DNA of 64,000 bases from positions 3,541-67,540 of the IMG/VR virus record IMGVR_UViG_3300044833_000092, one strand, 5' to 3'. The notes under the pieces are model-generated. The model made no database searches and was not told the origin of the DNA. It was given only the letters and a program-made list of their open reading frames with translations. How positions within the stretch are numbered: the stretch's first letter is position 1; every line of letters starts with the position of its first letter. A program made the position numbers and the translations under genes. The DNA is from a virus. Positions 9,377 through 62,963 of the stretch are shown one piece after another.

Positions 9377-9580
9377 ATGGTCAGCGTTGAAGAACGCATA
9401 CGCCAGCTCAAACAGGTGCCGCTTCTGGAAATCGAAATCGCCCGACTCAAGATTGAACTTGCCAGGGTGCAGCAGCGCCGCTGCGAGCTATGCCGGGAAA
9501 ACCAACAGCTCAAGACAGGTGGTGGAAATCCACCACCTGCTTCCCTTCGTGAACGAACGACGATGGCGGAGAATTTGTAA
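9377..9580 (+). CDS. Small coiled-coil protein containing motif A in frame
   Basis: AGGAGG SD; heptad-like IRQLKQ..LEIEIARLKIELARVQ. Confidence 0.55.
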   Translation: MVSVEERIRQLKQVPLLEIEIARLKIELARVQQRRCELCRENQQLKTGGGNPPPASLRERTTMAENL

Positions 9581-9694
9581 TGGGAAAAGGCCGTCCGCAC
9601 AACTTGGTTAACTTCAGCACGGACGAACTTATCGCCGAAATTAGAAAGCGAGGGGTGGAAAATTCCTAATTTATTTGCTGAAACCCCGGATGAC

Positions 9695-11986
9695 GTGGTT
9701 CTCATTGCCGATGGGTGGGGTCCAGTGTTGCGCTGGAACGGCTTCACCAATCAGGCGAGCCCGGCCGGCGTGCCGGCTCCGTCCAAGCTGCCGACCATGA
9801 CATTCTCCGGCACCGGCCCTATCGTCGGCGCGTACCGCTGCTTTCTGCGCTACATCGACGCCAACGATTACCCCGGCAACCTGACGCCCATCGCCCCGGC
9901 TGACGTGATTGCCCTGTCCCGCTCCGGTGTAGTCGCCAAGGCTGTGGCTGGCACGCCGATTGTATTGACCATCACGGCTCACGGATTCAATAATTCGACC
10001 ACCATCAAGACGACGGGCATCGCCGGCATCGTGGAGGCCAACGGCGTTTTCAAGGTGACGGTCATCGATGCCAACAATATCTCTCTCAACGGTTCGACCG
10101 CCGACGGGCTCAGCGAGTTCTACGGCGGCGGCGGGACTTGGATCGCCGGCACCGGCTTGGTGACGTACGGCAATCTGGAGGCTCCAGCGGACCCGCGAGT
10201 GGTGCGCCGTCAGATACTCCGCAACACCGATGGCCAGGAAGCGGTGTTCTACGTCGATATCGACACCACCGACCTGTCCAGCGCTACTCTTACCAGTACC
10301 CAGGACGACAACGCGCTCCAGACGGGCATCGCCGTGCCTTTTCTCGACTCCACTGGCAAGGACGTTTCCAATGTCAATGGCGAGCCGCCTAACAACAAGC
10401 CCTTGATCGTCTATCATCGAGGATTGGTTTTTATGGCTGGCGACGTGCGTTACACCGAGGGCGCTGTTGCCTTGACGTTCGGCTCCAATCAGGTGCATGG
10501 TATTGCAACGGAGTGGCGAGCGGCCGCGGCTGGCCGCTTCATCTACGTCGTCGGTGCGAACAAGGCGTACACGATTGCAGCCGTGGACGAGTTGAATCAG
10601 ATCGTCACCCTGACAGAGCCGTACCTTGCACCGTCGCAGCCGTACGCTTTCTATGCCATTTGTTCGGCCGAGCCGGATCAGCGCACCGTCTACTATTCCG
10701 ACGCCAGCCACGCCGAGGGCTTCTCGCCGCTTGTCGGCTTTACCATCGCCTCCGACGGCGACGACTTCACCGGCGAGTTGTCCTACGATTCGTTCCTCTA
10801 CATTCTGGAACGCTCGCATATCTACAAACAGACGTATCAAACCGATCCCAACACAGACGGTGCCGTCTACCAGAGTTCCGATCGCGGCTGCGTCAACCAG
10901 CGCTGCGCCGTTAAGGCGGGTGAGAGCGTCTACATGCTGGACGAGAAGGGCATTCACGCCTTTGGCGGCCGCAACGCCGGCGATCGCAGCGATCCGGTGC
11001 AGACGCTCTTTCGCCCAGACGTGCCGGGGCCGAAGATCAACTTCGCGGCGGGCCGTTTCTTTCACGGTGTCTTGGATCAGACGACCGAAGTTATACGCTG
11101 GTTCGTTTCGCTCTCGGGAACCTATCTCCCCCGCCACGCCATTTGCTATCAATACGATCTTGACCGCTGGTGGATCGAGGAGTATCCGTGGCCGATATCC
11201 TGCTCATTCGTCGGCCGCCTCTACCGCCGGGCTCCGCTGGAGACGTGGGGAGCCGGGCGCTTGCAGGTATTCCTGGGCTCGACCGGCCGCCGCGTGTTCG
11301 CCGTTGGAGCTTCGCCGCTCGACGGAGTGCCACCACTCAAGGAGTACGCCTGCCCCATCACGACCGCCGGGTTTAACTGGTTGGAAACGCCGTCAGCGCT
11401 GCCGCCGTGCGTCAATGCTCCAGTGGTGATTGTCGGCGGCCGTGGCAAAGGACAGCGGCGCATTGTGGTCTCTATGTCGGGAACGAGACTGCGCCTGCGC
11501 GATCCGTGGCTGGTGCAGCCCGACGTGACCAGCACCATTCAGGTTGGCGGTATCGAGTGGAGCTGGAAGTCTGGCTGGATGGAATGGGCTGACGAAGAGA
11601 CGACCAATCCGCGAGCGGTGGAAGTATCTTTCGGGCCTACGACGGTGCCCAGCGACGTGACCTTGAACCGCTTCCGTGACCGTAGCGATCAGGCTGACGT
11701 GATTGCTCTTGACCGTGCCGAGGACGGCGTGTTGGCTCGGGCCGGCGAGAGTGACGTATTGCTCTCGTTGGAACAGTTGCCGGGTGGCTTCGGACAGGCC
11801 CTGATGTTTTCGGGAAAGCAGTCGTACACTCGTGGGCCACAGGTTATCAGTGTGGGACTCAATGGTGTTGGCACCATCGATCCGGTGAAGCTCTATCAAA
11901 TCGACGTTGACGGCGTTGTCGATCCGACTGGAATCATTCCCGATCGTCAGCTGCGCCGCCAGGGCGAAGGCGGGGGAGGGGGATAG
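9695..11986 (+). CDS. Nozzle / DNA stabilisation (tail tubular B-like) protein with inserted beta domains; start uncertain
   Basis: Beta-propeller-type motifs (YHRGLVFMAG, VYYSD, DRGCVNQRC, VYMLDEKGIHAFGG, WSWKSGW); TAHGF...EANG FCCH-like insert. Confidence 0.7.
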   Translation: MVLIADGWGPVLRWNGFTNQASPAGVPAPSKLPTMTFSGTGPIVGAYRCFLRYIDANDYPGNLTPIAPADVIALSRSGVVAKAVAGTPIVLTITAHGFNNSTTIKTTGIAGIVEANGVFKVTVIDANNISLNGSTADGLSEFYGGGGTWIAGTGLVTYGNLEAPADPRVVRRQILRNTDGQEAVFYVDIDTTDLSSATLTSTQDDNALQTGIAVPFLDSTGKDVSNVNGEPPNNKPLIVYHRGLVFMAGDVRYTEGAVALTFGSNQVHGIATEWRAAAAGRFIYVVGANKAYTIAAVDELNQIVTLTEPYLAPSQPYAFYAICSAEPDQRTVYYSDASHAEGFSPLVGFTIASDGDDFTGELSYDSFLYILERSHIYKQTYQTDPNTDGAVYQSSDRGCVNQRCAVKAGESVYMLDEKGIHAFGGRNAGDRSDPVQTLFRPDVPGPKINFAAGRFFHGVLDQTTEVIRWFVSLSGTYLPRHAICYQYDLDRWWIEEYPWPISCSFVGRLYRRAPLETWGAGRLQVFLGSTGRRVFAVGASPLDGVPPLKEYACPITTAGFNWLETPSALPPCVNAPVVIVGGRGKGQRRIVVSMSGTRLRLRDPWLVQPDVTSTIQVGGIEWSWKSGWMEWADEETTNPRAVEVSFGPTTVPSDVTLNRFRDRSDQADVIALDRAEDGVLARAGESDVLLSLEQLPGGFGQALMFSGKQSYTRGPQVISVGLNGVGTIDPVKLYQIDVDGVVDPTGIIPDRQLRRQGEGGGGG

Positions 11987-11988
11987 CT

Positions 11989-12669
11989 ATGGGCATAGAG
12001 TCTTTTTTCGGCGCTCAGGCCGATCGCTTGCTCCGCAAAGAGTGGGGTGACGACGTGGACAGTTTCGCGCAGGAACTGGTGGCCATGTTCACGTCTAAGG
12101 AACCGATCAACCTGACCGGACCTGTGACAATCGATCGTGGGAACGCCGACAATGTTCCGGCACTCACGATCAACGATGGTACTAACGGCAGCTCAGCGCC
12201 GATCGTCATTAATCGTACCGATGGCACCGGCTCGTCGCAGCCAAACGTCGATAGCGGCGGCGGCTATTCATGCTGTGGCTCCAGTTCGCAAAATGCTCCT
12301 CCCAAGATGCCGCCGGTCGATCAAGGCAAATTCCCGCCGGTTCCACCTGTGACGCCGGCTGGACCTCCGGGCGGTCTGCCTGATCCCAACATGCCCAGGC
12401 GTGAGTTTAGCGGCACTATCCTGATAAAAGTCGTGCAGGGCGAGCCGGATGTCTTCGGCTGGAATGGTCAACAGGTGCCGTTCATAGCTACGGGCTGTGT
12501 CCCGTACAAGCCGCCATCGGTGAATGGCCCAACGAGTGCTTTCGATCCTAGCCTGAATCAGCCCGAGCCCGTCACGGCGCAGCTGGCGGCGTTCATGGCA
12601 AAGTGGAGTCTCGACGGTTACGATCTCATCGCCGACACCGTAGCCGGTCCCGGTTCTCCTTGTGCTTAG
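11989..12669 (+). CDS. Hypothetical virion-module protein
   Basis: SD and tight packing after the nozzle-like gene. Confidence 0.55.
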   Translation: MGIESFFGAQADRLLRKEWGDDVDSFAQELVAMFTSKEPINLTGPVTIDRGNADNVPALTINDGTNGSSAPIVINRTDGTGSSQPNVDSGGGYSCCGSSSQNAPPKMPPVDQGKFPPVPPVTPAGPPGGLPDPNMPRREFSGTILIKVVQGEPDVFGWNGQQVPFIATGCVPYKPPSVNGPTSAFDPSLNQPEPVTAQLAAFMAKWSLDGYDLIADTVAGPGSPCA

Positions 12670-12734
12670 GGCGAGCCGGACTATAATCTCAGGGGTGGTG
12701 GAAATCCACCACCTGAAAAACCAGGGGGCGTGCC

Positions 12735-15285: not shown

Positions 15286-15366
15286 TGGCAGAAGAGAGTC
15301 AGTGGCTGACGAACCCACGATCGTCCAGTTTCAGGGTGGTGGAAATCCACCACCTGACCGGGAGGC

Positions 15367-15573: not shown

Positions 15574-15588
15574 CCAAGGAGCCTCTCG

Positions 15589-16143: not shown

Positions 16144-16209
16144 CCCCCATATTTGCCAGCGCCACGCGACGATCTCCCTTGGGGGTAGCCTTGGCGTCCT
16201 CCAAGGGAG

Positions 16210-16673: not shown

Positions 16674-16723
16674 GGGTGGTGGAAATCCACCACCCTATTG
16701 CGGCGCACCAATAGGAGTTTTCT

Positions 16724-20967: not shown

Positions 20968-21121
20968 AATGAGTCCTCCAAGAATGGGCCGGGAAATGAC
21001 GATGGCGGGGATGTTGCCGAGGCACCCCCGCCACCTAGCGTTCCTATTCCGATACCGACCGGAAGTCAGAGCGCTGAGAACAGTATAGCAACAAGGGTGG
21101 TGGAAATCCACCACCCTTGTT

Positions 21122-23253: not shown

Positions 23254-23464
23254 GATTCCCCTCCGTAGAGGGGTGGTGGAAATCCACCACCCCTGGATTT
23301 CGTTCAGTCCGTGTGGCGAAAGTCGTGGGCCGTGGCTAACGGAACCGGCCGCCGCCAAAGGAACGCTTCAACCCGCTCGCTGCCCTCATCGACAAGCTCG
23401 GCCGTGAAGCCGTAGCGTTTGAGTGCATCGCGCAGGTGGCTGTTGAGTACGTCGTACAAGCCTA

Positions 23465-26503: not shown

Positions 26504-26583
26504 CGGACCCTCCGTTTGCAAGGGTGGTGGAAATCCACCACCTGACCTGAAAGCTATTGCGGCGCACCAATAGGCGGACGAGT

Positions 26584-27273
26584 CTACACAATCTTGATCG
26601 CCTTGTCCATCAGGCCCTTGCGGACGATCTTGTCCAGTTGCTCGTCCTCGGCCACCATGTAGGCGCAGTCGCAGCCGTAGCACTTGGCCTTAACGATCAG
26701 TTCGTTTATGAGCATCTGTTCGCAGATATAACCGGCCCATTCGCGGACGATCGGCGTGGTGAACCGGCCGTCGTTCAGTTCCTGCCAGACGGCTTCCTCG
26801 CTTAGCACCGGCATGAAGCCGGGTCGCTTGGACTTCAAGACCAAGTGGTAGGTGTTGAACCCCAAGCTGTGGGCAAACGCTTCGTAGCCGTAAGGCGAGC
26901 GTGTGAATGACGCCCCTGGAGCAATGCCGCTGCTGTAGTTACCGTCGCTGTGATCGACCCACAATTGGAACGTCACCTTGGGACTGTAGGCCACCGCCCG
27001 CAGAGCCTTGATAGAGCCCTGTGGACCGGCCACGCTCAGGTAGAGCAATTCTCTGCTGTAGTCCCTGGTGACGGCAGCGGCGTCGAAGGCGAAGCTGTGT
27101 TCGCATTCGGTGGCTGTGATTCTGAGTTGCCGGGTTTCTCGGCTGACGCTTCGAGTGGCGCTTCCAGCGCTGCTGCTGGGTTCTCGTCCAGGCCGTAGCC
27201 CGCCGGCATCTTGCCCGAGTGCAGGAGAATCTCGTACTCCTGTGCGTAAGTGCTGACTGTCATTAGCGACCAC
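26584..27273 (-). CDS. Conserved protein of methyltransferase-helicase modules; start unclear
   Basis: YLSVAGPQGSIKAL...FTTPIVREW; 5' part overlaps the recombinase and lacks a clear start. Confidence 0.55.
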   Translation of the reverse strand: MVANDSQHLRTGVRDSPALGQDAGGLRPGREPSSSAGSATRSVSRETRQLRITATECEHSFAFDAAAVTRDYSRELLYLSVAGPQGSIKALRAVAYSPKVTFQLWVDHSDGNYSSGIAPGASFTRSPYGYEAFAHSLGFNTYHLVLKSKRPGFMPVLSEEAVWQELNDGRFTTPIVREWAGYICEQMLINELIVKAKCYGCDCAYMVAEDEQLDKIVRKGLMDKAIKIV

Positions 27274-28010
27274 TTTTTCACTCCCTTTCTATTGGGGATT
27301 TTGGCCTCGAATAGTTTGTTGCCGATCGAACGCAACGTCTCGCCGTTGCAGCGCATAAGGTAGATGCGGCGCATCAGGCGCAACTCGTAATCGTTGACGA
27401 CCCAAACCCGGTGGTAAATATCGTGTCCCAGCTTCCTCTCACCCGTAGGCGTTTTCTTTACCATGAAGCCGTGAGGCGGGCTGGGCTTATGCACCAAACC
27501 CTGGCGCTCCTTCTCCGCCAGGACAGCCTTGACCCGCTCCCGGTTCAGGCTCCGCTCAAACTCCGCGAAGATGGACAGGAACGCCACCATCAAGCGACCC
27601 ATCGGATTGGACGTGTCGAGCCCATACTCAACGAAGTGGCAGTACACGCCCATCTTCTCCCAATGGTCGAGGGTGGCGAAGGTGTCCCCCATGTTGCGGA
27701 ATGCCCGGTCCGGCTTGGTGAAGATGATATGGTCCCCCGGTTGCACGGAGTCATAGACCACCTTGCCGGCCTTGCGTTGCCGGAACGGCACCCGCCCCGA
27801 CACTTCCTCATCGGCGAAGTAGCCGAGGTAGGTGCAGCCCAGCGCCTTGAGCCGCCATTCGACGTAACCCAGCAGTCGCTGCTCCTGGGCCTGGAGCGAA
27901 GTCTGCTGATGACCCGTCGATACCCGGCCGTAGGCAAAGACGCGGGCCGGCGGCGATGGCTCGCTGGCCACTTGAACCGATGGCTTCATGCTGCTCTTCT
28001 TGCGGGTCAC
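27036..28010 (-). CDS. Serine recombinase (resolvase domain plus partial recombinase domain)
   Basis: YGRVST catalytic motif, DEEVSG, KPDRAFR, GRLMVAFLSIFAEFERSLNRER. Confidence 0.9.
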   Translation of the reverse strand: MTRKKSSMKPSVQVASEPSPPARVFAYGRVSTGHQQTSLQAQEQRLLGYVEWRLKALGCTYLGYFADEEVSGRVPFRQRKAGKVVYDSVQPGDHIIFTKPDRAFRNMGDTFATLDHWEKMGVYCHFVEYGLDTSNPMGRLMVAFLSIFAEFERSLNRERVKAVLAEKERQGLVHKPSPPHGFMVKKTPTGERKLGHDIYHRVWVVNDYELRLMRRIYLMRCNGETLRSIGNKLFEAKIPNRKGVKKWSLMTVSTYAQEYEILLHSGKMPAGYGLDENPAAALEAPLEASAEKPGNSESQPPNANTASPSTPLPSPGTTAENCST

Positions 28011-28549: not shown

Positions 28550-28583
28550 GGCGATTCTCCCAGGTGGTGGAAATCCACCACCC

Positions 28584-30170: not shown

Positions 30171-30249
30171 GTTCGTAGCTCCTGTAGAAGAGGGGTGGTG
30201 GAAATCCACCACCCCTCGGGTGTGACCTTCTATTGCGGCACCGCAATAG

Positions 30250-31946: not shown

Positions 31947-32384
31947 CTAAAGAACTTTGGTCTTACTGCCGAACTCCATTATCACCACGTCGCCGGAGCC
32001 GCTGGTCGCCTCGAAGTGCATAGCCTTGAAGAAATTCGCGGCTCCAGGCAGGAGACAATAGGGCACTTCCACCACGACTTGCACGCCGTCGCCGTGGCCC
32101 TGGATTAACAGTTGCTCCAGCAACTGCCGGCCTATGGCCATGCGCCACCAGTCGGGGTGGACCGTTAGATGCTTGATGATGCAGACGCCCGCGGCCTGTT
32201 CCCAGGAGAGCCAGCCGCGGACGCTCTGGTGACAATCGACGGCGACGACGTTGTGGCGGAACGGCTGGCGTAAACAGAACTCCACGTCGTTCATCGACAG
32301 GCACAACTTTGGGCTGACATGGCGGTGCGCCGCCCACTCCAATTCATGAACTTGCCATGCGTCACGCCACTTCATCGCCCTCAC
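31947..32384 (-). CDS. GNAT acetyltransferase (RimI-like)
   Basis: HLTVHPDWWRMAIGRQLL motif A; A..FFKAMHF motif B. Confidence 0.75.
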   Translation of the reverse strand: MRAMKWRDAWQVHELEWAAHRHVSPKLCLSMNDVEFCLRQPFRHNVVAVDCHQSVRGWLSWEQAAGVCIIKHLTVHPDWWRMAIGRQLLEQLLIQGHGDGVQVVVEVPYCLLPGAANFFKAMHFEATSGSGDVVIMEFGSKTKVL

Positions 32385-32676
32385 CTTTGTCTCCGGCACG
32401 ATCAGCCTCCCTTTGCCCAGGTGTCGGATTTCCACCACCCTTTAGGATATTGATACTCTCGGTCAGAGCGGTGAGCAAGCCTTCGGCTTCGGCCAGCGGC
32501 AGCACCGCCGAGAACGGCGAGCGATCGTGGGTAGCTACGGTGACGCAGACGCCACTGATGCCAGAAACGACCGCGATACCCATATGGTATGGCCAGCCAA
32601 GCCGAATGCGTTTCGCCTCTGCACCGTCGGCCAGGAGCATTAGCCTGACCTTTTGTTGCTGGTGAGTCAGCTTCAT
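32362..32676 (-). CDS. Hypothetical protein containing a motif A variant in frame
   Basis: AAGGA SD; KGGGNPTPG. Confidence 0.5.
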   Translation of the reverse strand: MKLTHQQQKVRLMLLADGAEAKRIRLGWPYHMGIAVVSGISGVCVTVATHDRSPFSAVLPLAEAEGLLTALTESINILKGGGNPTPGQREADRAGDKGEGDEVA

Positions 32677-33440: not shown

Positions 33441-33492
33441 CTTGCTGTCCTCTGGTGGTGAGAAAAACTCAGGTGGTGGAAATCCGCCATCC

Positions 33493-34166: not shown

Positions 34167-34205
34167 GAGAAGCCCTCCTAATTCAGGTGGTGGAAATCCG
34201 ACACC

Positions 34206-36816: not shown

Positions 36817-37016
36817 TTTCTAAGGGTGGTGGAAATCCGACACCTGACAACCGGACAATAGGATAACCGCAATGCGGCTTGTAGTGCAAGCCACGATAGA
36901 CGACGATTGCCAACCAGATTGGAGCGTCACAAGACCAGCGATAGAGAGCCAGCGCCTCCGGCCCCTCGCACGGGTAGCCGGAGGACGCCAGTCTGAAACA
37001 CAGTTCATTCAAGTCG

Positions 37017-39198: not shown

Positions 39199-39283
39199 GC
39201 GAATAACTCCAGTTGAAGGGAAGGGAAAGAGGGGTGGTGGAAATCCACCACCCCAGGGAATGCTATTGCGACGCCGCAATAGC

Positions 39284-41017: not shown

Positions 41018-41403
41018 TCTCTCCCGCGGGGAACGGCCGCAAGAATCAGGTGGTGGAAATCCGACACCCTATTGCGGCGCATCAATAGCCTAATGCGGCG
41101 CGGCAATAGAAAGCGACGTTGGTTGCACGGCGGGCTCGGATCAGTCCAGCCCGCCTTTAGCTTGACGGCTGGTCGCTGGACTGCCGTACACTATGCCGGC
41201 AATTGCGCCAGGATCGATTCTGGCGGCCCTTGTCCGCAAGGCAGGGTAAAGCCTAGCCAAGGGCGGAATCGCCCCGCATACGTCAAGCTGGGCGAACGGC
41301 CGGCCGGCCCTGTCAACGGTACGGATACACTCCCATTGTCCCATAAAGGGCGGACTATTGCCACTAAGCAAGGGCCGGACCGAAAGGACAGGGGAGCGGA
41401 ACG

Positions 41404-43617: not shown

Positions 43618-44151
43618 CAGAAAGGGCCGCCCCGCGGCCGTGTCGCCCTGCGACCAGACCGGAGGATGCTATGCGGCTTAGTCGGGAAACGTAGTCGATT
43701 TCACCCATATCAAGATCGAGTGGAGCGGACTGTAGATTCGCTGCTTAACGCGCGTGGCCAGGCGGGCAGGCGCGTGGCCACCCGTAGGCCCCCATCGCCT
43801 CCTCCCAGGTGTCACTACTCCTCGCCGAGATTTTTCCTTATGTCCCTTCGGTCCCTCGGGGCTACGGCGTAGCGTTTCTTCACGTCCGCGGCGTGTGGTT
43901 CCGTCAGGTGGTGGAAATCCACCACCTGCCCTCTTTGTTCGCCAGCGAACATTTCCCTTTCTCTCGCTTCGCTCGGCGTCCCGCTCACCGCTTCGCGTTC
44001 CTCATGTCCTGTCGTCCGGTGGACGATGCTCACGGCTTCCGTCAACGCTCCACTCCATGACTCAGACCGCGTAGCCAGTTTGCCGCATTTTTGGGTACTT
44101 ACACCCACAAGCACTTTGCTCATTTGCCCTCTCACCATCAGGAGGTCACTC

Positions 44152-45648
44152 ATGTTTTCGTCCTTCGGCTTCGCGTCCTCAGCGTTGCCCGTACTGGCGG
44201 TGGCTCTCGCTCTCTTCTACCTGCTCGGCAACCTGGACCTGTCGTCAGCCATTGCGTCGGCTGGCGATGCCGTTGTGGAGACGGGCGACTTCCGCTCCGG
44301 TACGGAACGTGTCCTTCCCGCTGGCGGTGGCGGGCCGACTCCTGCCGCGGCTCCCGCTCCTGCTGGAGGCGGGGCACAAGGCAGGGCACCAGCACCCGGA
44401 CAACCCGGCAGCACAGGCAGGACGCCGGCGGGAGGCCCGCAAGGTGGACAGCTGGCCCCGGCGATGGGCCAGCCTGGACCCGCGGCCGCGGGCCAGCCGC
44501 GTCCGGCCGGTCAGCCGCCCGCCCCTGGGCAACTGCCGGGCCAGGGCCAGCCGCAGCCCCAGCCGGCAGGTGGTGGAAATCCACCACCCCAGCCGGGAGG
44601 CCAGCAGGGTCAATGGGCTCTGCGTAACGAGCTTCAGCGGCTTGGCTGGGACGTGAGCGGCTTTACGGACGATGCTTCGGCGTGGCAGGCGTTGTCGGGC
44701 CGGCTGGCCCAGCAGCAGCAGGTCAACCAGCAGATGGCGGAGTACGCCCGCTGGGGGCAGTATTACGTCGCCAACCAGCGGCAGATTCAGGAAGCCCTTG
44801 CCAGGGGCCAGGGCCAGCCCACTCCTGTTCCGACGCCGGGTTCTCCGGGTTCGGTTGGCGGGGCGGCTCAGCAGGAAGATTGGTGGAAGGCCCCCGCCTG
44901 GAATCCCGAGAATGAAAAGTACATCAGCTTCGATCCGGCTACCGGGGCTCCGGTCGTGCCGATCGGCATGGACCCGTCGATCGCCAAGCAGTACCTGGAC
45001 TACAAGACGTGGCAGCGCGAGACGGTGGAGAAATTCTTCCGCGATCCGATCGGCACGCTCAAGCCAGGGCTGGAGCAACTGATCCGGTCCGAGGCTCAGA
45101 AGATCGCTGGCCAGCAGGTGGCCGGCTACGGCGATCAGCAGTTCGCTCAGAACTACGTCGCTTCGCAGCCCTGGATGTTCGCCAAGGATCAGGCGGGCAA
45201 CGTCCAGACCGATTACCTGGGCCAGCCGCTCCTGACGCCGGCGGGCAGCAAGTTCAAGCATTACCTCGAATATGCTCAGCGCTCCGGCATTCAGGACATT
45301 CGGGCTCAGCAACAGTGGGCCTACGGCATGGTTGAGCGCGATGCCCTTGCGTGGCAGCTTCAGCAGTATCAGGCCGGTCAGCAACCGGGAGGCCAGCCGG
45401 GTGGGCCGGCCCCGGCCGCTGGTCAGCCGGGCGCTCAGTTGACGCCGCAGCAGATTCAGCAGCAGCAACAGCAAGCGGCCCTGAACCTGGGCGGAGCAAG
45501 GCATATCCCCGGCAGCGGAGCCCAGGGCAACAACCCGGCCCCGACGCCGGGCAACGGCGGCGTGCCTCGAAAGCCGATCGGTCGCAATGCCCTGGTCAAC
45601 CGCCTTCAGGGTGCCCTTCAGGAAAAGGGCATCACGCAACTGAATTAG
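44152..45648 (+). CDS. Capsid scaffolding protein with hydrophobic N-terminal leader
   Basis: AGGAGG SD; P/G/Q-rich linkers, helical core, directly upstream of the capsid gene. Confidence 0.7.
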   Translation: MFSSFGFASSALPVLAVALALFYLLGNLDLSSAIASAGDAVVETGDFRSGTERVLPAGGGGPTPAAAPAPAGGGAQGRAPAPGQPGSTGRTPAGGPQGGQLAPAMGQPGPAAAGQPRPAGQPPAPGQLPGQGQPQPQPAGGGNPPPQPGGQQGQWALRNELQRLGWDVSGFTDDASAWQALSGRLAQQQQVNQQMAEYARWGQYYVANQRQIQEALARGQGQPTPVPTPGSPGSVGGAAQQEDWWKAPAWNPENEKYISFDPATGAPVVPIGMDPSIAKQYLDYKTWQRETVEKFFRDPIGTLKPGLEQLIRSEAQKIAGQQVAGYGDQQFAQNYVASQPWMFAKDQAGNVQTDYLGQPLLTPAGSKFKHYLEYAQRSGIQDIRAQQQWAYGMVERDALAWQLQQYQAGQQPGGQPGGPAPAAGQPGAQLTPQQIQQQQQQAALNLGGARHIPGSGAQGNNPAPTPGNGGVPRKPIGRNALVNRLQGALQEKGITQLN

Positions 45649-46866: not shown

Positions 46867-46900
46867 CCCCAGGTGGTGGATTTCCACCACCTGGGGTTTA
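46867..46900 (+). terminator. Motif A hairpin with extended stem after the capsid gene (possible terminator/attenuator)
   Basis: CCCCAGGTGGTGGA-TT-TCCACCACCTGGGG then TTT. Confidence 0.45.
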
Positions 46901-48142: not shown

Positions 48143-48214
48143 CCTTGCCCAAACGGCCGGGATGGCTTAGAACAGGTGGTGGAAATCCACCACCTGTTTC
48201 TTTTGGAGCCACCC

Positions 48215-49821: not shown

Positions 49822-49891
49822 GGTGGTGGATTTCCACCACCCTACCCTACTGCCGGGTTTCCCAGGTGTTTTCGCCCATTGGAGGACAGTT

Positions 49892-53636: not shown

Positions 53637-53730
53637 TTTCAGGTGGTGGATTTCCACCACCCCTCCGCGGCCAGCCTATTGCGACGCCGCAATAGGCTGG
53701 CCGTTTCCTTACCCAATCAAGGAGTCAACC

Positions 53731-55049: not shown

Positions 55050-55092
55050 GGCAGGGTGGTGGATTTCCACCACCCTGCCCTTTTCTTTTTTC
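55050..55092 (+). terminator. Intrinsic terminator built on motif A
   Basis: 14-bp stem GGCAGGGTGGTGGA/TCCACCACCCTGCC followed by CTTTTCTTTTTT at the end of the capsid operon. Confidence 0.7.
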
Positions 55093-55774: not shown

Positions 55775-55795
55775 GATTATTCTCCTGTTGGACTG

Positions 55796-55843
55796 TTGCT
55801 TGTTTGCCGCGTTTATTGTACATTAGTCCCGCCGATTGACCAA
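55796..55843. promoter_or_regulatory. Overlapping divergent sigma70-like promoters
   Basis: Plus strand TTGCTT-17-TACATT; minus strand TTGGTC-17-TACAAT, sharing ATTGTACATT. Confidence 0.5.
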
Positions 55844-55874
55844 TGAGACACGTCAACCAAAGAAGGTCACACCA

Positions 55875-56828
55875 ATGACTCAGTCACCAGAAGTGGAAGA
55901 ACTCATCAAGCGGTTAGCGGCCCCGTTCACGCCGGCTCAAATCAAATTCAAGCCGCAGAGCGTCAACAAAGAAAAAACCCGCGCTCTGGCACTGGCATAT
56001 ATCGACGGCCATGCCGTTAAGGGAAGGCTCGACGAAGCTGTCGGCGTGGCGGGATGGCAAGACTCTTACGAAGTCCTAGACGATCGTTCTGTCAAATGCA
56101 CTTTGCGCGTCAAGATCGGCGACGAATGGATCACCAAGGAAGACGCCGGCGGTGCGAGCGATCAAGAGGACAAAGGCGACCGCATGAAGGCCGCCTTCAC
56201 TGACGCACTGAAACGTGCCGCCGTCAAGTTCGGCATCGGCCGCTTCCTCTACGAGTTGCCGAAGAATTGGTGGCCATACGATCCGGTGAAGAAAACCTTC
56301 GTCGGCACGCCCAATCTGCCGGCGAGCTTCTACCCTGACGGCAAGATACCGCGGCAGCAGCAGGCCCCGCAACAGCAACAGCAACAAGGTGGTGGAAATC
56401 CACCACCTGCCCAAGCGGCAGCGCCGCCTCCAGCGGCCAACCCGAAGCCCCCGGCGTCAGCGCCGGCGGTGAAGACGCCGGATGCACCGCCGGACAAACC
56501 ACCATCTGCCCCAAAGCCGACTGTTACGGTCCCAGCGGCGGCGGGGACAGGTGGTGGAAATCCGACACCTGCTCCGGCCCAGGCCAAGCCCAGGGTCCAG
56601 GCCCAACGGGCAGCGACGGCGCAGCTCGATGAGATCAACAATCTCTGCGGCGACCTGCGCTACGATCTGCCCTGGTTGCAGAATGCCCTGATGGAGAAGT
56701 TCGGCAAACAGGAGCCGGCCGACCTGACCGCCCTGGAGGCCGACGTTGTTCTCAAAGGATTGAAGCTGGCCCTATCGAAGAAAGGAGGCGCACCGACCGC
56801 AACCGCACCGAAGAAAAGTGGCTTTTGA
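55875..56828 (+). CDS. Rad52/Rad22-family single-strand annealing protein
   Basis: LAAPF...ALAYID...RLDEAVG...KEDAG...KAAFTDALKRAAVKFGIGRFLY. Confidence 0.9.
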   Translation: MTQSPEVEELIKRLAAPFTPAQIKFKPQSVNKEKTRALALAYIDGHAVKGRLDEAVGVAGWQDSYEVLDDRSVKCTLRVKIGDEWITKEDAGGASDQEDKGDRMKAAFTDALKRAAVKFGIGRFLYELPKNWWPYDPVKKTFVGTPNLPASFYPDGKIPRQQQAPQQQQQQGGGNPPPAQAAAPPPAANPKPPASAPAVKTPDAPPDKPPSAPKPTVTVPAAAGTGGGNPTPAPAQAKPRVQAQRAATAQLDEINNLCGDLRYDLPWLQNALMEKFGKQEPADLTALEADVVLKGLKLALSKKGGAPTATAPKKSGF

Positions 56829-56862
56829 TTACCCGCCCTACCCATTCACTTGAGGAGCATTC

Positions 56863-57708
56863 ATGTCAGCGACAGAAACACCCGAAGCGCCCGCGGCCGC
56901 AACCGAAACCCCCAAGGGCTCGGAACTGATCGAGAAGTCCGCCATCTTCAAGTACGGCAATCGCACGTTCAAGATTCCGTACGTCAAGCTGGCCGATCCT
57001 CTCACCAAAGAGGAAGACAAGGATCTTGAGGAATCGATCAAGGCCCTGGGCGTCATTCACGCCGTCGTCGTCACCGAGGACAATACGGTCCTGGCCGGCC
57101 ACAATCGCCTGATGAAGGCGAAGAAGCTTGAGATTCCCCTCAAGGACGTGCCCATTCAAGTGCGCAAGCGGGACGCCGGCACGGAAGAGCAGATCGAGGT
57201 TGCCTATGCGTCCAATTTCATTGGCCGCAAGTTCACTCCCGAGCGGCGGGCGCACGCCGCCCATATGCTCGCCAAGCTGGACTTCTCCGCCCGGCGGATC
57301 GCCAAGGTGATTGGCGTCCATCACACCACCGTCATCGATGACCTGAGCAAGGCCGATCCGTTCGCCCTGCCCGAGGAGGAGGAAGAGGAGGAGGCAACGG
57401 AAGGCGGCGAGGCGGCTACGAACGGTGCAGCGGCTGGAGGCAAGAAGAAAGCCAAGAAGGGAGGCAAGGATTTCGTCATCGGCTCGGACAACAAGAAGCA
57501 TCCCAAGAAGAAGAAACGGAAAGCCAAGTCGGCTGACCAGGAAGTCGTGGCCAACCAGCGGGCGAAACTCGTGCGCCGCAAGTGGAAGAAGAACGCCATC
57601 ACGGCCATCGGCTTGCTGGTCCGCTCCCTCGATCGCTTGGGGATCGGCGAGAAGCACGCGGCCAAGCTCCAGGCGCTCATGGACGAGGTTCGCGCCGTCG
57701 AGCTGTAG
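56863..57708 (+). CDS. ParB/Srx N-terminal domain protein with HTH
   Basis: LEESIKALGVIHAVVV...LAGHNRL; SARRIAKVIGVHHTTVIDDL. Confidence 0.8.
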   Translation: MSATETPEAPAAATETPKGSELIEKSAIFKYGNRTFKIPYVKLADPLTKEEDKDLEESIKALGVIHAVVVTEDNTVLAGHNRLMKAKKLEIPLKDVPIQVRKRDAGTEEQIEVAYASNFIGRKFTPERRAHAAHMLAKLDFSARRIAKVIGVHHTTVIDDLSKADPFALPEEEEEEEATEGGEAATNGAAAGGKKKAKKGGKDFVIGSDNKKHPKKKKRKAKSADQEVVANQRAKLVRRKWKKNAITAIGLLVRSLDRLGIGEKHAAKLQALMDEVRAVEL

Positions 57709-57755
57709 GCGTCTGCTTCACCCAGTTCGGAAATAACGCATCGCGGAGGGAGACG

Positions 57756-59267: not shown

Positions 59268-59539
59268 ACGCCGATAAGAAAATGGCGGCTATGCCGAGGT
59301 CTGCTCTTTACATCATCAGCATCGCAGCCCATACCTTGAACGATCAGAGCATGGTCGTCCATCACACGGCCTGTCTGGTGGAGGCAGCCAACAGGGACGA
59401 AGCCGCCGGCAAGGGCCAGCGTATCGCCGAGAAATATTATCCGCGCTCCCGTGGCTTCTCCGGCATTAGCGTGATAGCCATTGGCTACCACGTCATTGGT
59501 CCCAACGACGCCATCAAGCCAGCGAGCCCCAGGCCATGA
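59264..59539 (+). CDS. Hypothetical protein
   Basis: ATGA overlaps on both sides. Confidence 0.55.
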   Translation: MNADKKMAAMPRSALYIISIAAHTLNDQSMVVHHTACLVEAANRDEAAGKGQRIAEKYYPRSRGFSGISVIAIGYHVIGPNDAIKPASPRP

Positions 59540-59808
59540 ACGCTGCCGAATGGGAAGCTCTGCGCCTTCAGTATCCAGGCAAGCGCCGCTTCTACACCAA
59601 TGACATTGGCCAAGTGTATGAGTGGCCCTGGAAGTCGCCGATCATCCCTCATCGGGCTCGCCTCTGGACCGTGGAGAGCATGGATCGCTGGGTGAAGTTA
59701 TCAGGCCAAGACTTGGCATTTATCCTTGAACGCGAGGAACATGAGAAGCTCAAGAAACAGAAACCCAAAGGCAACAAAAAGGGCGACGTAGACCCAAGGA
59801 CACTCTAA
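59536..59808 (+). CDS. Hypothetical protein
   Basis: Coupled start/stop. Confidence 0.55.
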   Translation: MNAAEWEALRLQYPGKRRFYTNDIGQVYEWPWKSPIIPHRARLWTVESMDRWVKLSGQDLAFILEREEHEKLKKQKPKGNKKGDVDPRTL

Positions 59809-60344
59809 TGCTCAAACGTGACGAGATTACCAATCCAAACAGTTGCTGGAACAAGGCCCGCGAGGACGAGCGCTTGTTCATCCTTCTGGACCGCGACGAT
59901 GCAATGGCAGATACGATACAATTCTGGATCAACAAACGGATCGAGCTTGGCAAGAACAAGCCAGGCGATCCGAAACTGGTCGAGGCTGAAGAGTGCATCC
60001 GCCTCATGGCGTCGGAACGCGCCACGCGCGAAGCGATGAGCCACAAGCTGTTGAAGGAAGGAGGCAGGCAAGTAATGGCAACGATACAAGAGCGCCGCGA
60101 GGAACACGAAAAGCGATTTCCAAACACGACGGTTGTTGATATCTGCTTCATGGTGCGCGACTTTACGCGGGGAGATAGCTGCCACGGTGCCGACTGGTTT
60201 CTCGTGGCCATTAGATTTCTCAAGATGGTCGATGAGACGTGGATGCAACCAGTGCCCGAGGACATGGAGTTCGACTCCAGCGTACGCCGACTGGTCAAGG
60301 CGGCGATCGGCTACGCACCTCCAGGGGGGCGGACCAATGGCTGA
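59808..60344 (+). CDS. Conserved phage hypothetical protein
   Basis: SCWNKAREDERLFILLDRD motif. Confidence 0.65.
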   Translation: MLKRDEITNPNSCWNKAREDERLFILLDRDDAMADTIQFWINKRIELGKNKPGDPKLVEAEECIRLMASERATREAMSHKLLKEGGRQVMATIQERREEHEKRFPNTTVVDICFMVRDFTRGDSCHGADWFLVAIRFLKMVDETWMQPVPEDMEFDSSVRRLVKAAIGYAPPGGRTNG

Positions 60345-60582
60345 GGACGCTGGCCTGGAGTCGCTCTTTACCGTCTCGCCCAGGCGGCGGGTCCAGCACT
60401 TGCTGGAGATGGTTGAACGTGCCCGCAACCATCACCCGCGGACCGCCCGCTTCGTCCTGGCCGGCGTCATTGCCACCGTGGACCCTGAGACGCTGACAGC
60501 GGTAGCCGAGGCGATGGCCGACGCTTTGCGCAAGCGTGCGTACAAGCTCGTTTCCCAGGAGAATGAGGAAATGAGCCCATAA
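60337..60582 (+). CDS. Hypothetical protein
   Basis: In operon. Confidence 0.5.
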   Translation: MAEDAGLESLFTVSPRRRVQHLLEMVERARNHHPRTARFVLAGVIATVDPETLTAVAEAMADALRKRAYKLVSQENEEMSP

Positions 60583-60589
60583 AGCCCAC

Positions 60590-60618
60590 AAGTCGCGCCA
60601 TAAGCGATCCTGGCGCAA
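60590..60618 (+). repeat. 29-bp element E, copy 2
   Basis: Identical to 16210-16238. Confidence 0.9.
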
Positions 60619-60839
60619 TGGCTGGGGCCATTAGATAGCGGCATTTAATTCAGTGGCAGGTGGTGGATTTCCACCACCCTGGGGACAATGACATGATGCG
60701 GTTCCCACGAATGCCCGGCTGCGAGACGGGCTGGGAAAGCCATCTCGCATGGGCGGTGGCATTCTGCACGCTGGCGTGGGCAGCAATCTCGTTCGTGGCT
60801 GTGACGGCCTGGGTAGTCTTTCACTGGTGAGGTAACGCT

Positions 60840-61136
60840 ATGAGATACCGCAGACGCAAACCGGCCGAGATCGAGGCGTTCCAGATGACCAAGGAGCGCA
60901 GGGCTGACAACCGCGACTGGCCGGAGTGGCTGAATAAAGCGTGGAACAAACCTTCGACAGCCCACGGTGCCGTGTGGCCCTCCGGTCCTCGAACAGACAA
61001 AGGTTACTTGGTGGCCGATACGCCCGAGGGCTCGCTGACTGTCGGTTGGGATTGGTGGATCGTTTTTGTCGTTGCCACGGGCGAGCTACAGGTAATGAGT
61101 CCGGAACGCTTCGAGGCAAACTACGAGCCGGTCTAA
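60840..61136 (+). CDS. Conserved phage protein
   Basis: MRYRRRKPAEIEAFQ...TPEG...FEANYEPV; GAGG SD. Confidence 0.75.
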   Translation: MRYRRRKPAEIEAFQMTKERRADNRDWPEWLNKAWNKPSTAHGAVWPSGPRTDKGYLVADTPEGSLTVGWDWWIVFVVATGELQVMSPERFEANYEPV

Positions 61137-61161
61137 TGCGGCGCACCAATAGGAGGGAACC

Positions 61162-61365
61162 ATGAACTACAGGTTCAAGGCCAAAGACTGTCCTGACGCC
61201 AACGGGCGAGTTCCGCTTAAGAACGAGCGGAAGTGGAAGCTAAGGTTTCCACTGGACGACGGGGGCGAGCTGACGATCGAGATTGGCAAGACTGGCTGGA
61301 ACGCTCTCAAGGAAATGCTGGCGCAGGAAGCGGCCGACGACGCCGCGGAGGGCGTCGAGATATGA
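61162..61365 (+). CDS. Hypothetical protein
   Basis: AGGAGG SD fused to motif B. Confidence 0.6.
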   Translation: MNYRFKAKDCPDANGRVPLKNERKWKLRFPLDDGGELTIEIGKTGWNALKEMLAQEAADDAAEGVEI

Positions 61366-62252
61366 GCCATCACGATGAACTGTGCGAATACTACGCTCCC
61401 GTCTTGGCGCAGCTTGAGAATCTGAACTGGCAACCCAACGGCAACGCCGCAGCCAATTGCCCGGCCCACGACGATTGCACCCGCTCGCTTTCGGTGAAGT
61501 TCGGCCGCCAGGACGAGTTGCTTGTCAAGTGCCATGCCGACCAGGGCTGCACCTTCCTGGCGATCGCCGGGGCTCTCCAGCGCTTTAGCAAAGATTTCTT
61601 CCGTCACGCCGCCGGTAACGACCGGCCTACAGAGTCGTTTGTTGAGGCGTACGATTACACGAACGTCGAAGGCGAAGTAACCTATCAGTCCATGCGCTTC
61701 TTTCCCAAGCGTTTCCAGATGCGCCGCCCGGACCCGGAGCGGCCCGGCTCATGGATCAACAACATGGACGGCGTGGTCCGTGTTCCCTACCGCCTCAGCG
61801 AGATTGCTTCGTCCTCAAAAGACCGTACCGTCTTCGTTGTCGAGGGCGAGACAAAGGTGCATTGTCTGGAAGATTTAGGCTTCCTGGCGACGTGCAACGC
61901 CGGCGGTTCGGAGAAGTGGCAATTGGACTGGTTGCCATATTTTTTGGGACGCCCCCTTGCCATTTTGCCCGATCATGACGAAAAAGGATGGCGGCACGCG
62001 GCCGTTGTGGCCAAGTGTCTGGTCGGAACCGCGGCACCGCTCCGCATCGTGGAGTTGCCCGGCCTGAAGCTCAAGGACGATGTCTTGAACTGGCGTAAGC
62101 GTATGCCTGAAAACCGCGGCGTGGTGGCGGAAGCCATCAAGGCCGCGGTTCTTTGCGCGCCGCCCTACGATCCCGCCAACGATCCGCAAATGAAGTTGGC
62201 AATCCTCCGCATGGAGATTGCCCGAGCTATGGCCATGTCGGGAGGTATATAA
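61362..62252 (+). CDS. DNA primase (Zn-binding plus TOPRIM), no fused helicase
   Basis: CPAHDD..SLSV...KCHA..GC; FVVEGE, LPDHDEKG, KDDVLNW. Confidence 0.85.
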   Translation: MSHHDELCEYYAPVLAQLENLNWQPNGNAAANCPAHDDCTRSLSVKFGRQDELLVKCHADQGCTFLAIAGALQRFSKDFFRHAAGNDRPTESFVEAYDYTNVEGEVTYQSMRFFPKRFQMRRPDPERPGSWINNMDGVVRVPYRLSEIASSSKDRTVFVVEGETKVHCLEDLGFLATCNAGGSEKWQLDWLPYFLGRPLAILPDHDEKGWRHAAVVAKCLVGTAAPLRIVELPGLKLKDDVLNWRKRMPENRGVVAEAIKAAVLCAPPYDPANDPQMKLAILRMEIARAMAMSGGI

Positions 62253-62291
62253 AAAAAAGGAACCCGCCGGTCATAACCTCCGGCGGGTTCC
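62251..62291 (-). terminator. Intrinsic terminator on the minus strand
   Basis: 12-bp perfect stem GGAACCCGCCGG/CCGGCGGGTTCC with U8 tail on the minus strand. Confidence 0.8.
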
Positions 62292-62305
62292 AAAAACGCG
62301 AGACG

Positions 62306-62344
62306 GCAGACATGCAGACATGCAGACATGCAGACATGCAGACA
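62306..62344. repeat. 8-bp tandem repeat GCAGACAT, about 5 copies
   Basis: Directly visible. Confidence 0.95.
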
Positions 62345-62358
62345 CCCATAACAACACC

Positions 62359-62387
62359 ACTTTACGGCGTTGCACGTCTGCCGTCAA
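62359..62387 (-). promoter_or_regulatory. Sigma70-like promoter TTGACG-17-TAAAGT
   Basis: Near-consensus -35 and -10 with 17-nt spacer. Confidence 0.6.
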
Positions 62388-62714
62388 TACCCCACGAAAG
62401 AAAAATCGCTGCCTTGATTGCAGCAACGGTACGGTAGCGGACGCCGCTGAGTAATGCGTCCGGACCGAGCGGGCCGGGGCCATCAGACCCTGGATAGCAA
62501 AACAACATCGGCTAACTGCCGGACCCCGTTGCGGATTTGACCGTTCCCAAGCCTCTCCCTTCTAGGGGGTAGGGGGTAGTCCGTCTAGTGGCCGGGAAGC
62601 GCAGCGGACCGGCACGGTGTCCTTTGCTATGGGCACCGCCCCTCTTCCTGCTCTGAGCGAGGAAGACCCGGCAGCATGATGTGATTCGATCTCTCTTGAA
62701 TAAGGACGAGTCCA

Positions 62715-62963
62715 ATGGCTGACAAACGCCGCCTGACGCCCGAGGAGCTTGCCATCGCCGTGAAGTGCTACGTCGCTGGCAACACGCCCCTGGACAGACT
62801 GCCGTACACCTTCGAGTTTGACGACCTCTGGCAGCGTGTCAACGCCGGCTTGAAGGTGCCACTCTCGAAGAACGAGCTATGGCTGGTCTTGTCCAACGCC
62901 CGCAAGATCAAGAAGCTGCCGGCGCTGCGCAAGCGGGGTGGTGGAAATCCACCACCCTTGTAA
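62715..62963 (+). CDS. Hypothetical protein ending in motif A (GGGNPPPL)
   Basis: AAGGA SD; LDRLPYTFEFD...NARKIKKLP. Confidence 0.6.
   Translation: MADKRRLTPEELAIAVKCYVAGNTPLDRLPYTFEFDDLWQRVNAGLKVPLSKNELWLVLSNARKIKKLPALRKRGGGNPPPL

Follow-up and report, generated by a model that had tools for sequence, protein, structure and literature searches.

A short palindromic DNA sequence, here termed motif A, recurs throughout the virus record IMGVR_UViG_3300044833_000092 of IMG/VR, and at six places it is written in frame into protein-coding sequence. The analysis covered 64,000 nucleotides (bases 3541-67540) of this 67,540-bp record, which has direct terminal repeats and is rated complete. This whole stretch is called the window, and all coordinates count from its first base. 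The 14-mer GGTGGTGGAAATCC occurs in 29 exact copies in the window, compared with 0.00 expected from 100 shuffles, and in 30 copies in the full record (22 forward and 8 reverse). Between genes lie 23 of the window copies; the other six lie within five open reading frames (ORFs), all read as GGGNP(P/T)P with the same rare codons. It is very probable that motif A is a nucleotide signal embedded in ORFs whose reading frame is filtered by the protein.

Sequence and fold of motif A

The 20-base hairpin of motif A is GGTGGTGG-AAAT-CCACCACC, and GGTGGTGGAAATCC represents its 5' arm and loop. Alternatively, the motif can be described as GGTGGTGGA-AA-TCCACCACC, a perfect inverted repeat of 9 bp with AA at its centre. 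The 14-mer core is kept exactly in 29/29 window copies, and a search of the window allowing up to five mismatches found no decayed copies beyond these. Variation is confined to the 3' arm, which ends in ACCACC in 22 copies, GACACC in five, GCCATCC in one and ACCGCC in one. The five-copy variant arm, CCGACACC, is found at 32420, 34186, 36825, 41049 and 56550, while CCGCCATCC (33472) and CCACCGCC (8431) have been found once each.

The flanks differ from copy to copy and can extend the stem. Complementary flanks add at least four stem pairs in 7/29 copies, compared with 0.16 expected; the maximum in 5000 controls was three. The motif can fold into a hairpin with a stem of 8 to 14 bp, and the unit measures 20 nt, or about 32 nt at most with its copy-specific flanks. 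RNA folding of eight copies yields -10.9 to -29.2 kcal/mol, with the variant copy at 32420 the least stable, and the fold z-scores of the copies reach -6.3. Only 5/29 copies are followed by a T-rich stretch (7 or more T among 15 nt), and a hairpin with a T-run on the sense strand was found at 2/10 copies in 44001-64000 (55055 and 48175). Because T-runs are absent from most copies, motif A is not a generic intrinsic terminator.

The Logan contigs of the one sequencing run holding the phage, which may be the source sample, match 44001-64000 exactly, with no variant at any copy. The joints listed in these contigs have sides of only 20-24 letters, which is the motif itself, and originate elsewhere in the phage genome.

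Copies inside genes

The copies inside genes and their host ORFs are as follows.

9377..9580, plus strand: probable 67-aa coiled-coil-like ORF, host of copy 9518
9518..9537, plus strand: motif A in frame, GGGNPPP, 14 codons ahead of the ORF stop; flank-extended stem, -21.3 kcal/mol
32362..32676, minus strand: 104-aa ORF, host of copy 32420, with homologues P0140 and P0141
32420..32439, minus strand: motif A in frame with variant 3' arm CCGACACC, GGGNPTP, in the C-terminal tail of ORF 32362-32676
44152..45648, plus strand: scaffold-like gene directly upstream of the major head gene; open from 44026, likely start Met at 44152
44569..44588, plus strand: motif A in frame, GGGNPPP, inside the Pro/Gly/Gln-rich linker that the scaffold-like protein has at its N-terminal end; CCGGC/GCCGG flanks lengthen the stem, -25.9 kcal/mol
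55836..56828, plus strand: gene of a Rad52/22-family (Erf-like) single-strand annealing protein; the database call starts at 55875 (317 aa)
56388..56407, plus strand: motif A in frame, GGGNPPP, directly past the Rad52 domain, pLDDT (predicted local distance difference test) <50
56550..56569, plus strand: motif A in frame with variant arm, GGGNPTP, at the linker end before the C-terminal helical domain
62715..62963, plus strand: 82-aa ORF, host of copy 62937; codon score 26.3, 0.317 per codon, GC content at third codon positions (GC3) 0.81
62937..62956, plus strand: motif A in frame, GGGNPPP; the ORF ends ...RKR-GGGNPPP-L-stop, and the hairpin ends 4 nt from the stop codon

The original prediction held that motif A is written into six coding positions in one shared frame, and every one of these copies was recovered as a 20-mer (9518, 32420 on the minus strand, 44569, 56388, 56550 and 62937). 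All six lie on the sense strand of their ORF, start at codon position 1 and are read as GGT GGT GGA AAT CC(A CCA|G ACA) CC., which gives GGGNP(P/T)P. Read from its sequence, motif A is stop-free in all six frames, and therefore all six readings were available. The five that are not used would give VVEIHH, WWKSTT, GGGFPPP, VVDFHH and WWISTT. Since the observed frame is the sole reading free of bulky, aromatic and charged residues, its choice is probably explained by protein tolerance. The chance of six copies sharing one of six readings is 1.3e-4, or 4.6e-3 for the four copies with certain hosts alone.

It had also been claimed that these copies use A/T-ending codons in a GC3-rich genome, and the codon statistics bear this out. 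Across 18,457 codons, GC3 is 0.771, and relative use within codon families is 0.117 for GGT, 0.095 for GGA, 0.269 for AAT and 0.131 for CCA. The codon-usage likelihood that had been proposed as a check gives, from genome codon usage, a probability of 6e-6 per copy for the exact 18 nt given GGGNPP. The internal control that had been named also holds: at 54815-54889, four GNPP(Q/L) repeats are written with GGC AAC CCG CCG/CCC. Because the exact rare codons are improbable and the GNPP repeats elsewhere use other codons, the peptide is best seen as a by-product of the DNA motif. The low likelihood per copy, together with the identity to the 23 copies between genes, indicates that nucleotides are kept and not the peptide, as had been proposed.

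The placement in linkers or terminal segments was likewise confirmed. Three copies are internal, in disordered linkers (44569, 56388 and 56550), and 84-90% of the residues flanking these are small or polar. The other three (9518, 32420 and 62937) are in C-terminal tails and lie 5-55 nt short of their ORF's stop. An AlphaFold model of the Rad52-like protein (six sequences) has pLDDT of ~90 for residues 1-150 and 245-303, while residues 162-242, which contain both motif peptides, have pLDDT <50 and no secondary structure. The two copies in this gene are same-frame direct repeats 162 nt (54 codons) apart. The prediction further took the in-frame copies as an argument against a purely terminator-like role. 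This argument stands for 44569, 56388 and 56550 only, because an end-of-gene role would be unaffected at the three terminal copies near ORF stops.

The claim depends on the host ORFs being real, and this could be upheld to differing degrees. The hosts of four coding copies are certainly genes. The Rad52-like protein matches PF04098 (2.9e-16, Pfam residues 20-145) and the Erf-like phrog_1097 (2.2e-37) and has 555 homologues. The scaffold-like protein has no Pfam or PHROG family; 16 proteins, itself included, match at E<=0.001, and the "scaffold" label is inferred from gene position. Its public gene call (P0122, 331 aa) begins at a GTG downstream of the motif. The orthologues are 450-555 aa long, and P0123, P0126 and P0130 align to the N-terminus ahead of the motif (LLGNLDLS...GD.FRSG..R), so the motif at 44569 is translated; judged by the orthologues, the gene is ~170-210 codons longer at its 5' end than the public call. 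For the 82-aa ORF 62715-62963, the homologue search returned only itself.

ORF 32362-32676 has two homologues in a 1.84-billion-protein library, P0140 (E 1.5e-6) and P0141 (E 3.4e-4). In BLASTP these are 40% and 39% identical over residues 8-79 and 16-95, respectively, and all three proteins have WPY...VTVA(S/T).D..P....LP..EA in common. On these homologues, the ORF is taken to be a real gene. It overlaps the next gene, a GNAT acetyltransferase, whose GTG (32399) lies 21 nt downstream of copy 32420. ORF 9377-9580 is a probable gene. It has AGGAGG 5 nt before its ATG, which is 2 nt past the upstream stop, and comparison with PHROGs, Pfam and NCBIfam gave it no family. It scores -5.7 for codon usage, a poor value, although the other five frames score lower still. 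Its stop is coupled by TAATG to a 29-codon ORF at 9580-9669 (MGKGRPHNLVNFSTDELIAEIRKRGVENS), itself a possible unannotated small gene.

Among the overlapping window ORFs, no genuine gene reads any copy antisense or off-frame. ORF 15213-16223, which reads copy 15335 as VVEIHH, is spurious (codon score -90.8), and the antisense or off-frame ORFs over copies 1850, 26523, 36825, 44569 and 48175 are shadows of opposite-strand genes.

Copies between genes

The 23 copies between genes comprise 22 intergenic copies and one in the divergent region at 43.9 kb.

1850..1869, minus strand: motif A, intergenic, 13 nt past a stop and 15 nt ahead of an ATG preceded by a Shine-Dalgarno (SD) sequence
5521..5540, minus strand: motif A, intergenic, with motif B following
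8431..8450, plus strand: motif A, intergenic, 3' arm CCACCGCC
12694..12713, plus strand: motif A, intergenic
15335..15354, plus strand: motif A, intergenic, overlapped by spurious ORF 15213-16223
16675..16694, plus strand: motif A, intergenic, in contact with motif B and with the SD of the 1296-aa gene
21096..21115, plus strand: motif A, intergenic, in the minus-strand block; 14-bp stem, -26.5 kcal/mol
23272..23291, plus strand: motif A, intergenic
26523..26542, plus strand: motif A, intergenic, adjoining motif B
28563..28582, plus strand: motif A, intergenic
30194..30213, plus strand: motif A, intergenic
33472..33491, plus strand: motif A, intergenic, 3' arm CCGCCATCC
34186..34205, plus strand: motif A, intergenic, variant arm CCGACACC
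36825..36844, plus strand: motif A, intergenic, variant arm CCGACACC
39233..39252, plus strand: motif A, intergenic
41049..41068, plus strand: motif A, intergenic, variant arm, with two motif B copies following
43907..43926, plus strand: motif A, between the divergent minus and plus blocks
46872..46891, minus strand: motif A, intergenic, 11 nt past the major head gene; 13-bp stem, -29.2 kcal/mol
48175..48194, plus strand: motif A, intergenic, T-rich tail; nearly a textbook hairpin with T-run
49822..49841, minus strand: motif A, intergenic, directly past a TAG stop
53642..53661, minus strand: motif A, intergenic, adjoining a motif B variant
55055..55074, minus strand: motif A, intergenic, 13-bp stem with T-run; the sole copy resembling a classical intrinsic terminator
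60659..60678, minus strand: motif A, intergenic

For the 22 intergenic copies, the median distance past the upstream stop is 12.5 nt (16/22 within 40 nt), and that ahead of an SD-preceded start is 23 nt (18/22 within 45 nt). The motif A copies are also rather evenly spaced, at intervals of ~2.2 kb. The coefficient of variation of the spacing is 0.50, whereas random positions give 0.97 and random gene boundaries 0.94. Such evenness is reached in ~1 in 10,000 draws, and it holds also for the 23 copies between genes alone.

In the mRNA, the loop of the intergenic copies is AUUU in 17 and AAAU in five. Relative to transcription, coding and intergenic copies differ in orientation (0:6 vs 17:5, Fisher P = 0.0012), all coding copies being of the type that is the minority between genes. 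Orientation can be described by genome domain as well, since 15/15 intergenic copies from 8431 to 43907 are on the plus strand and 7/9 from 46872 round the ends to 5521 are on the minus strand.

A second repeat family, motif B (CTATTGCGGCGCACCAATAG), occurs in both orientations; its stem is 6 bp and its loop 8 nt long. With up to four mismatches allowed, 24 copies, 11 of them exact, lie at 5545-61152, and they are concentrated in the minus-strand block at 30-43 kb (example sites are 5545, 16695, 26554, 32713, 35485, 40799 and 49444). Motif B is often found beside motif A and sometimes touches the Shine-Dalgarno of the next gene (16695, 5545 and 61133).

The peptide in orthologues and the motif in other DNA

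The peptide recurs in relatives of two host proteins. In the five closest full-length Rad52 orthologues (44-53% identity), GG(G)[NS]PP is found at the same site after the Rad52 domain in 5/5, in the forms GGGNPPPA, GGNPPPA, GGGSPPA, GGNPPAA and GGGNPPA. It is found in 0/114 of the other homologues among the 119 non-self Rad52 homologues listed. Of the eight scaffold orthologues, P0125, P0127 and P0128 carry the peptide, here in a C-terminal linker (forms GGGNPTP, GGGNPPA and GGNPPV, with GGGNPTP in P0125), and 5/8 are without it. Overall, 8/13 orthologues have the peptide, compared with 0.05 expected from residue shuffles, and 0/125 other proteins fetched have it. At the level of protein sequence, the clade shares the peptide, including the Thr variant that matches the second allele of the window, and the peptide is fixed at one site and mobile at another. 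The orthologues may use the same nucleotides to write it.

A further sign of insertion comes from BLASTP of ORF 32362-32676 against P0141, in which a gap of 11 residues coincides with NILKGGGNPTP before the alignment continues at GQREADRAG/GQMEAARAG. The suggestion in the original prediction that the motif is inserted into genes therefore has part of its backing in this gap and in the shifting scaffold linkers. Its implied mobility went too far at the Rad52 site, where the position is fixed in 5/5 close orthologues, as is more readily understood of a signal under retention than of a selfish element newly inserted. The underlying idea, a nucleotide motif embedded where a linker tolerates it, was largely right, and the prediction as a whole is partly supported.

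The Rad52 relatives also differ around the motif. The Pro/Ala linker of 54 codons between the two Rad52 copies is missing from orthologue P0003, and L163 (893-1819), a more distant IMG/VR Rad52 homologue, has both C-terminal module types and no motif. Such patterns suggest that modules may have been exchanged at the Rad52 motif junction.

In the other DNA searched, motif A itself was not found as a repeat. In IMG/VR, there were 0 exact 20-mers, a scan with the 14-mer found only single chance matches among the matches listed, and the 80 Rad52 loci are distant only and all without the motif. A search with tblastn of phage records found none for the scaffold-like protein and, for the Rad52-like protein, only N-domain matches of <60% identity. 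With two degenerate positions, the 20-mer occurs singly 17 times among 185,579 species genomes and 25 times among metagenome contigs, and no second copy, motif B or window-like protein was found beside these. A mimic of a CRISPR repeat (Racr-like) was considered and dropped, as the 20-mer has no array-like multiple matches in any genome locus and the flanks are not conserved.

Comparison with known repeat systems

Stoperators of Cluster A mycobacteriophages (L5, Bxb1) are repressor roadblock sites with >20 near-identical 13-14-nt copies genome-wide, located mostly in short intergenic spaces, with few inside genes and an orientation bias relative to transcription (PMC9283540, PMC6550527). The present phage is similar in genome size, in having 30 copies of an exact 14-mer and in having 23/29 window copies between genes. 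However, stoperators are asymmetric, non-palindromic and bound by a monomeric repressor, whereas motif A is a perfect 9-bp inverted repeat. Stoperator orientation is also almost uniform, compared with 17:5 for the intergenic and 0:6 for the coding copies of motif A. A repressor of the stoperator type, with a helix-turn-helix and a stoperator domain, had no match in PHROGs, Pfam or NCBIfam; since most window ORFs are without any family there, a novel repressor is possible.

The Rickettsia palindromic elements (RPEs), to which the original prediction likened motif A, are ~150 bp long and are found between genes and in frame within unrelated genes, where their peptide is tolerated (PMC10969869). 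The in-frame presence in unrelated ORFs (six copies in five ORFs) and the insertion relative to P0141 are shared features. RPEs, on the other hand, are bacterial and form several diverged families of ~100-150 bp, whereas motif A is a viral, invariant sequence of 20-24 nt. Considering also that there are no decayed copies and that no transposase was found in window ORFs, the likeness is loose. Uptake sequences of bacterial transformation (uptake signal sequences and DNA uptake sequences) that fall in genes favour certain frames and poorly conserved positions and shift peptide frequencies (PMC2817400). Motif A resembles them as a DNA-level signal that is frame-selective and at tolerant positions in genes. 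Uptake sequences are nonetheless 9-12 nt long, have hundreds to thousands of copies and sit in frames with preferred codons, while motif A belongs to a phage and uses rare ones.

Repetitive extragenic palindromic (REP) sequences and bacterial interspersed mosaic elements are 20-40-nt GC-rich hairpins with many copies just past genes, for which termination and mRNA stabilisation have been proposed (PMC3733652). Motif A is within their size range and has the hairpin form. REPs are strictly extragenic, imperfect palindromes with sequence spread, whereas 6/29 copies of motif A are inside ORFs and its core palindrome is perfect. The GTAG or CGTC tag of REPs is represented by a GTAG directly before the motif A core at one copy only (49822), and the flanks vary otherwise. 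REPs are associated with the REP-associated tyrosine (RAYT, Y1) transposase. None was found with Pfam, PHROGs and NCBIfam among ~90 ORFs of the window, which begins at base 3541 of the record, and a host genome with many motif copies was not found among 185,579 species genomes.

The PeSL (promoter early stem-loop) cassettes of T4-type phages are repeated intergenic stem-loops that also serve as points of genetic exchange (PMC4122927, PMC2839356). Motif A is likewise a repeated intergenic stem-loop in a phage genome. PeSLs are composite promoter-terminator units confined to hyperplastic regions, with no reported in-frame copies inside genes; motif A was found without a promoter part. Sigma-70-like sites in 44001-64000 number two compared with 4.1 expected, with none at a copy, by a consensus that may not be that of the host. 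Intrinsic terminators share the GC-rich hairpin with all motif A copies, and their U-run is lacking at most copies. Because at least one defining feature of each system failed, motif A is not a member of any of them. It is closest to stoperators in genome-wide behaviour, to RPEs and uptake sequences in its in-frame habit, and to REPs and PeSLs in form.

A model for motif A

Based on these observations, motif A would be a cis-acting nucleic-acid signal of the phage lineage that normally lies in the short gap between two genes. A protein of the phage or host would recognise it sequence-specifically, as a hairpin or as a palindromic duplex, and the signal would punctuate transcription units as a conditional stop, pause, roadblock or protected RNA end, and not as a plain factor-independent terminator. 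Within genes, it would be harmless while the factor is absent. Selection at the protein level would filter the site and frame of the signal, and selection on the signal would freeze its rare A/T-ending codons. A sequence-specific factor is favoured because the 14-mer is invariant in both orientations, has two alleles, is evenly spaced and is retained inside genes. The folded strand is favoured because compensating flanks lengthen the stem, and the punctuation of transcription units because the copies lie between stops and starts. We infer recognition by a factor and an effect on transcription or RNA from these features, and the whole statement, including transcription punctuation by a factor, is put forward tentatively, as plausible with slightly worse than even prospects.

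Several points weigh against this model. No repressor-like, RNA-binding or nuclease family stands out among the ~90 ORFs in PHROGs, Pfam and NCBIfam. The intergenic orientation is mixed (17:5), and if the signal is polar, the six coding copies may be inactively oriented. A duplex-binding protein leaves the compensating flanks unexplained, while a reader at the RNA level leaves the invariance of the 14-mer in both DNA orientations unexplained. The 20-mer is multi-copy in no other record searched. The sequencing runs listed as holding the phage amount to one DNA run and no RNA run. The host of copy 9518 also remains a gene only probably.

One alternative is that motif A is a plain factor-independent RNA hairpin between cistrons, acting as a terminator, attenuator or 3'-end stabiliser, whose copies are alike only through duplication or recombination; the coding copies would then be hairpins at gene ends that ORFs read through by chance. 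It would account for the stable folds, with z-scores down to -6.3, for the compensating flanks and for the copies right behind stops. Copy 55055 is a textbook hairpin with T-run and 48175 is nearly one, and three coding copies lie 5-55 nt ahead of their ORF's stop. Structure alone, however, needs neither 29/29 identical 14-mers nor the absence of decayed copies, and the T-run is missing at most copies. Three copies lie deep in essential-looking genes (scaffold-like and Rad52-like), one of them site-conserved in 5/5 orthologues, and both orientations are present. We therefore regard this explanation as unlikely.

About equally doubtful is a small selfish palindromic element, similar to REPs or RPEs, that enters gaps and tolerant in-frame linkers, has no function for the phage and is possibly also a junction for module exchange. 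Such an element could leave the scaffold peptide as it is distributed, in an N-terminal linker of the window protein, in a C-terminal one of P0125, P0127 and P0128 and nowhere in 5/8 orthologues, and it could also leave the 11-residue insertion relative to P0141 with the tail retained. The second allele CCGACACC is at five unrelated loci. In the Rad52-like protein, the motif stands where an N-domain that is widely shared meets a C-domain specific to the clade, and the 54-codon linker that P0003 is without has a direct in-frame copy on either side. Precedents are the in-frame palindromes of Rickettsia (PMC10969869) and PeSL-mediated shuffling in T4-like phages (PMC4122927). Nevertheless, the copies of motif A have no decay spectrum, no Y1/RAYT or other transposase was found among the window ORFs, the 20-24 nt of the unit are far below the RPE size, and it is multi-copy in no other genome or contig searched. 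Neither the even spacing nor the retention of the Rad52 site in 5/5 orthologues would be expected.

Less probable still is a duplex DNA site for a transaction other than transcription, such as binding of a ParB-like protein, crossover by a serine recombinase, replication or packaging. The perfect 9-bp inverted repeat around a central AA dinucleotide would suit it, as would the invariance in both orientations, the even spacing, the orientation by genome domain (15/15 plus, 7/9 minus) and the encoded ParB-like protein and resolvase-family recombinase. Invertases and shufflons have recombination sites placed within genes and in frame. With thirty such sites in both orientations, however, the genome would be scrambled, and the Logan contigs reproduce 44001-64000 unrearranged. 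The compensating flanks indicate a folded single strand, and the ParB_N match is below the Pfam cut-off. Finally, the already disfavoured idea that GGGNP(P/T)P is itself a short functional peptide motif of several phage proteins, which would fit its recurrence in orthologues, is very improbable given 23 non-coding copies of the same nucleotides, the shared rare codons of 6/6 coding copies (P = 6e-6 each), functionally unrelated host proteins and a position that shifts between linkers in scaffold orthologues.

Other features of the genome

The window has a GC content of ~0.61-0.65 and 88 ORFs in a home-made codon-usage gene model. The genes are on the plus strand up to 20.6 kb, on the minus strand from 20.6 to 43.4 kb and on the plus strand again from 44 kb. 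Few proteins match any family when the ~90 ORFs are compared with PHROGs, Pfam and NCBIfam. Those that do include a portal, the major head protein (45685-46860), two helicases, a resolvase-family recombinase, a methyltransferase-like protein, a GNAT protein, a ParB-like protein, a primase, the Rad52/22 annealing protein and a resolvase-like DUF1064 protein. Two of these were mentioned above as possible readers of a duplex site.

27036..28010, minus strand: small serine recombinase of the resolvase family (PF00239, 5.1e-29)
56863..57708: ParB-like protein (phrog_6218, 2.3e-10; ParB_N match under the Pfam cut-off)

The 1296-aa ORF 16724-20614 has the top codon score of the window and no match in PHROGs, Pfam or NCBIfam. 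ORF 6861-8423 (520 aa) has six copies of a 57/117-nt repeat at 7548-8073, coding a repeated TLTWTG.F...G.DA motif, and is probably a repeat-domain virion protein. In ORF 15589-16143, which encodes a proline-rich repeat protein in the structural module, a 15-nt unit coding PPGMP is repeated nine times in tandem. Between the divergent gene blocks, at 43550-43621 and near copy 43907, a 9-nt unit (GGCCGGCAG) recurs six to seven times in tandem and could be iteron-like or part of a doubtful ORF. No tRNAs were found in the window, and Rfam gave 0 matches at gathering score.

Two window stretches had no match among 50,697 phage records, and IMG/VR had no relative of the major head protein and none for the scaffold alignment; no cultured or IMG/VR phage is related by DNA, head protein or scaffold protein. 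The more distant Rad52 homologues bear source names from Gemmataceae, and from these names alone a planctomycete host can be guessed. A search of 401 Planctomycetota genomes with the Rad52 alignment found none at E<=1e-15 for the close clade, and three further genomes, reached through loci, had no close Rad52-clade match.

Implications

On the practical side, the public start of the scaffold-like gene (P0122) is misplaced downstream of the motif. The recurring peptide GGGNP(P/T)P offers a protein-level marker by which the phage clade can be traced in metagenomes. An invariant 14-mer at 30 sites provides a means of searching for the factor behind the organisation of expression or DNA handling in a barely annotated phage group. 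Motif A would also be a clear example, from a virus, of codon usage within genes being overridden by a nucleic-acid signal.

A bolder reading, possible and yet on the doubtful side, is that motif A is an indispensable genome-wide signal with a dedicated factor, kept at set places, including inside genes, by a clade of uncultured soil phages and represented by two conserved alleles (…CCACCACC and …CCGACACC). The signal would then have kept its place at one Rad52 domain boundary through ~50% protein divergence. If this is true, the phage would be an example of viral dual coding in which a DNA or RNA site dictates the sequence of a protein linker, and the motif could double as a junction for exchanging protein domains and gene cassettes.

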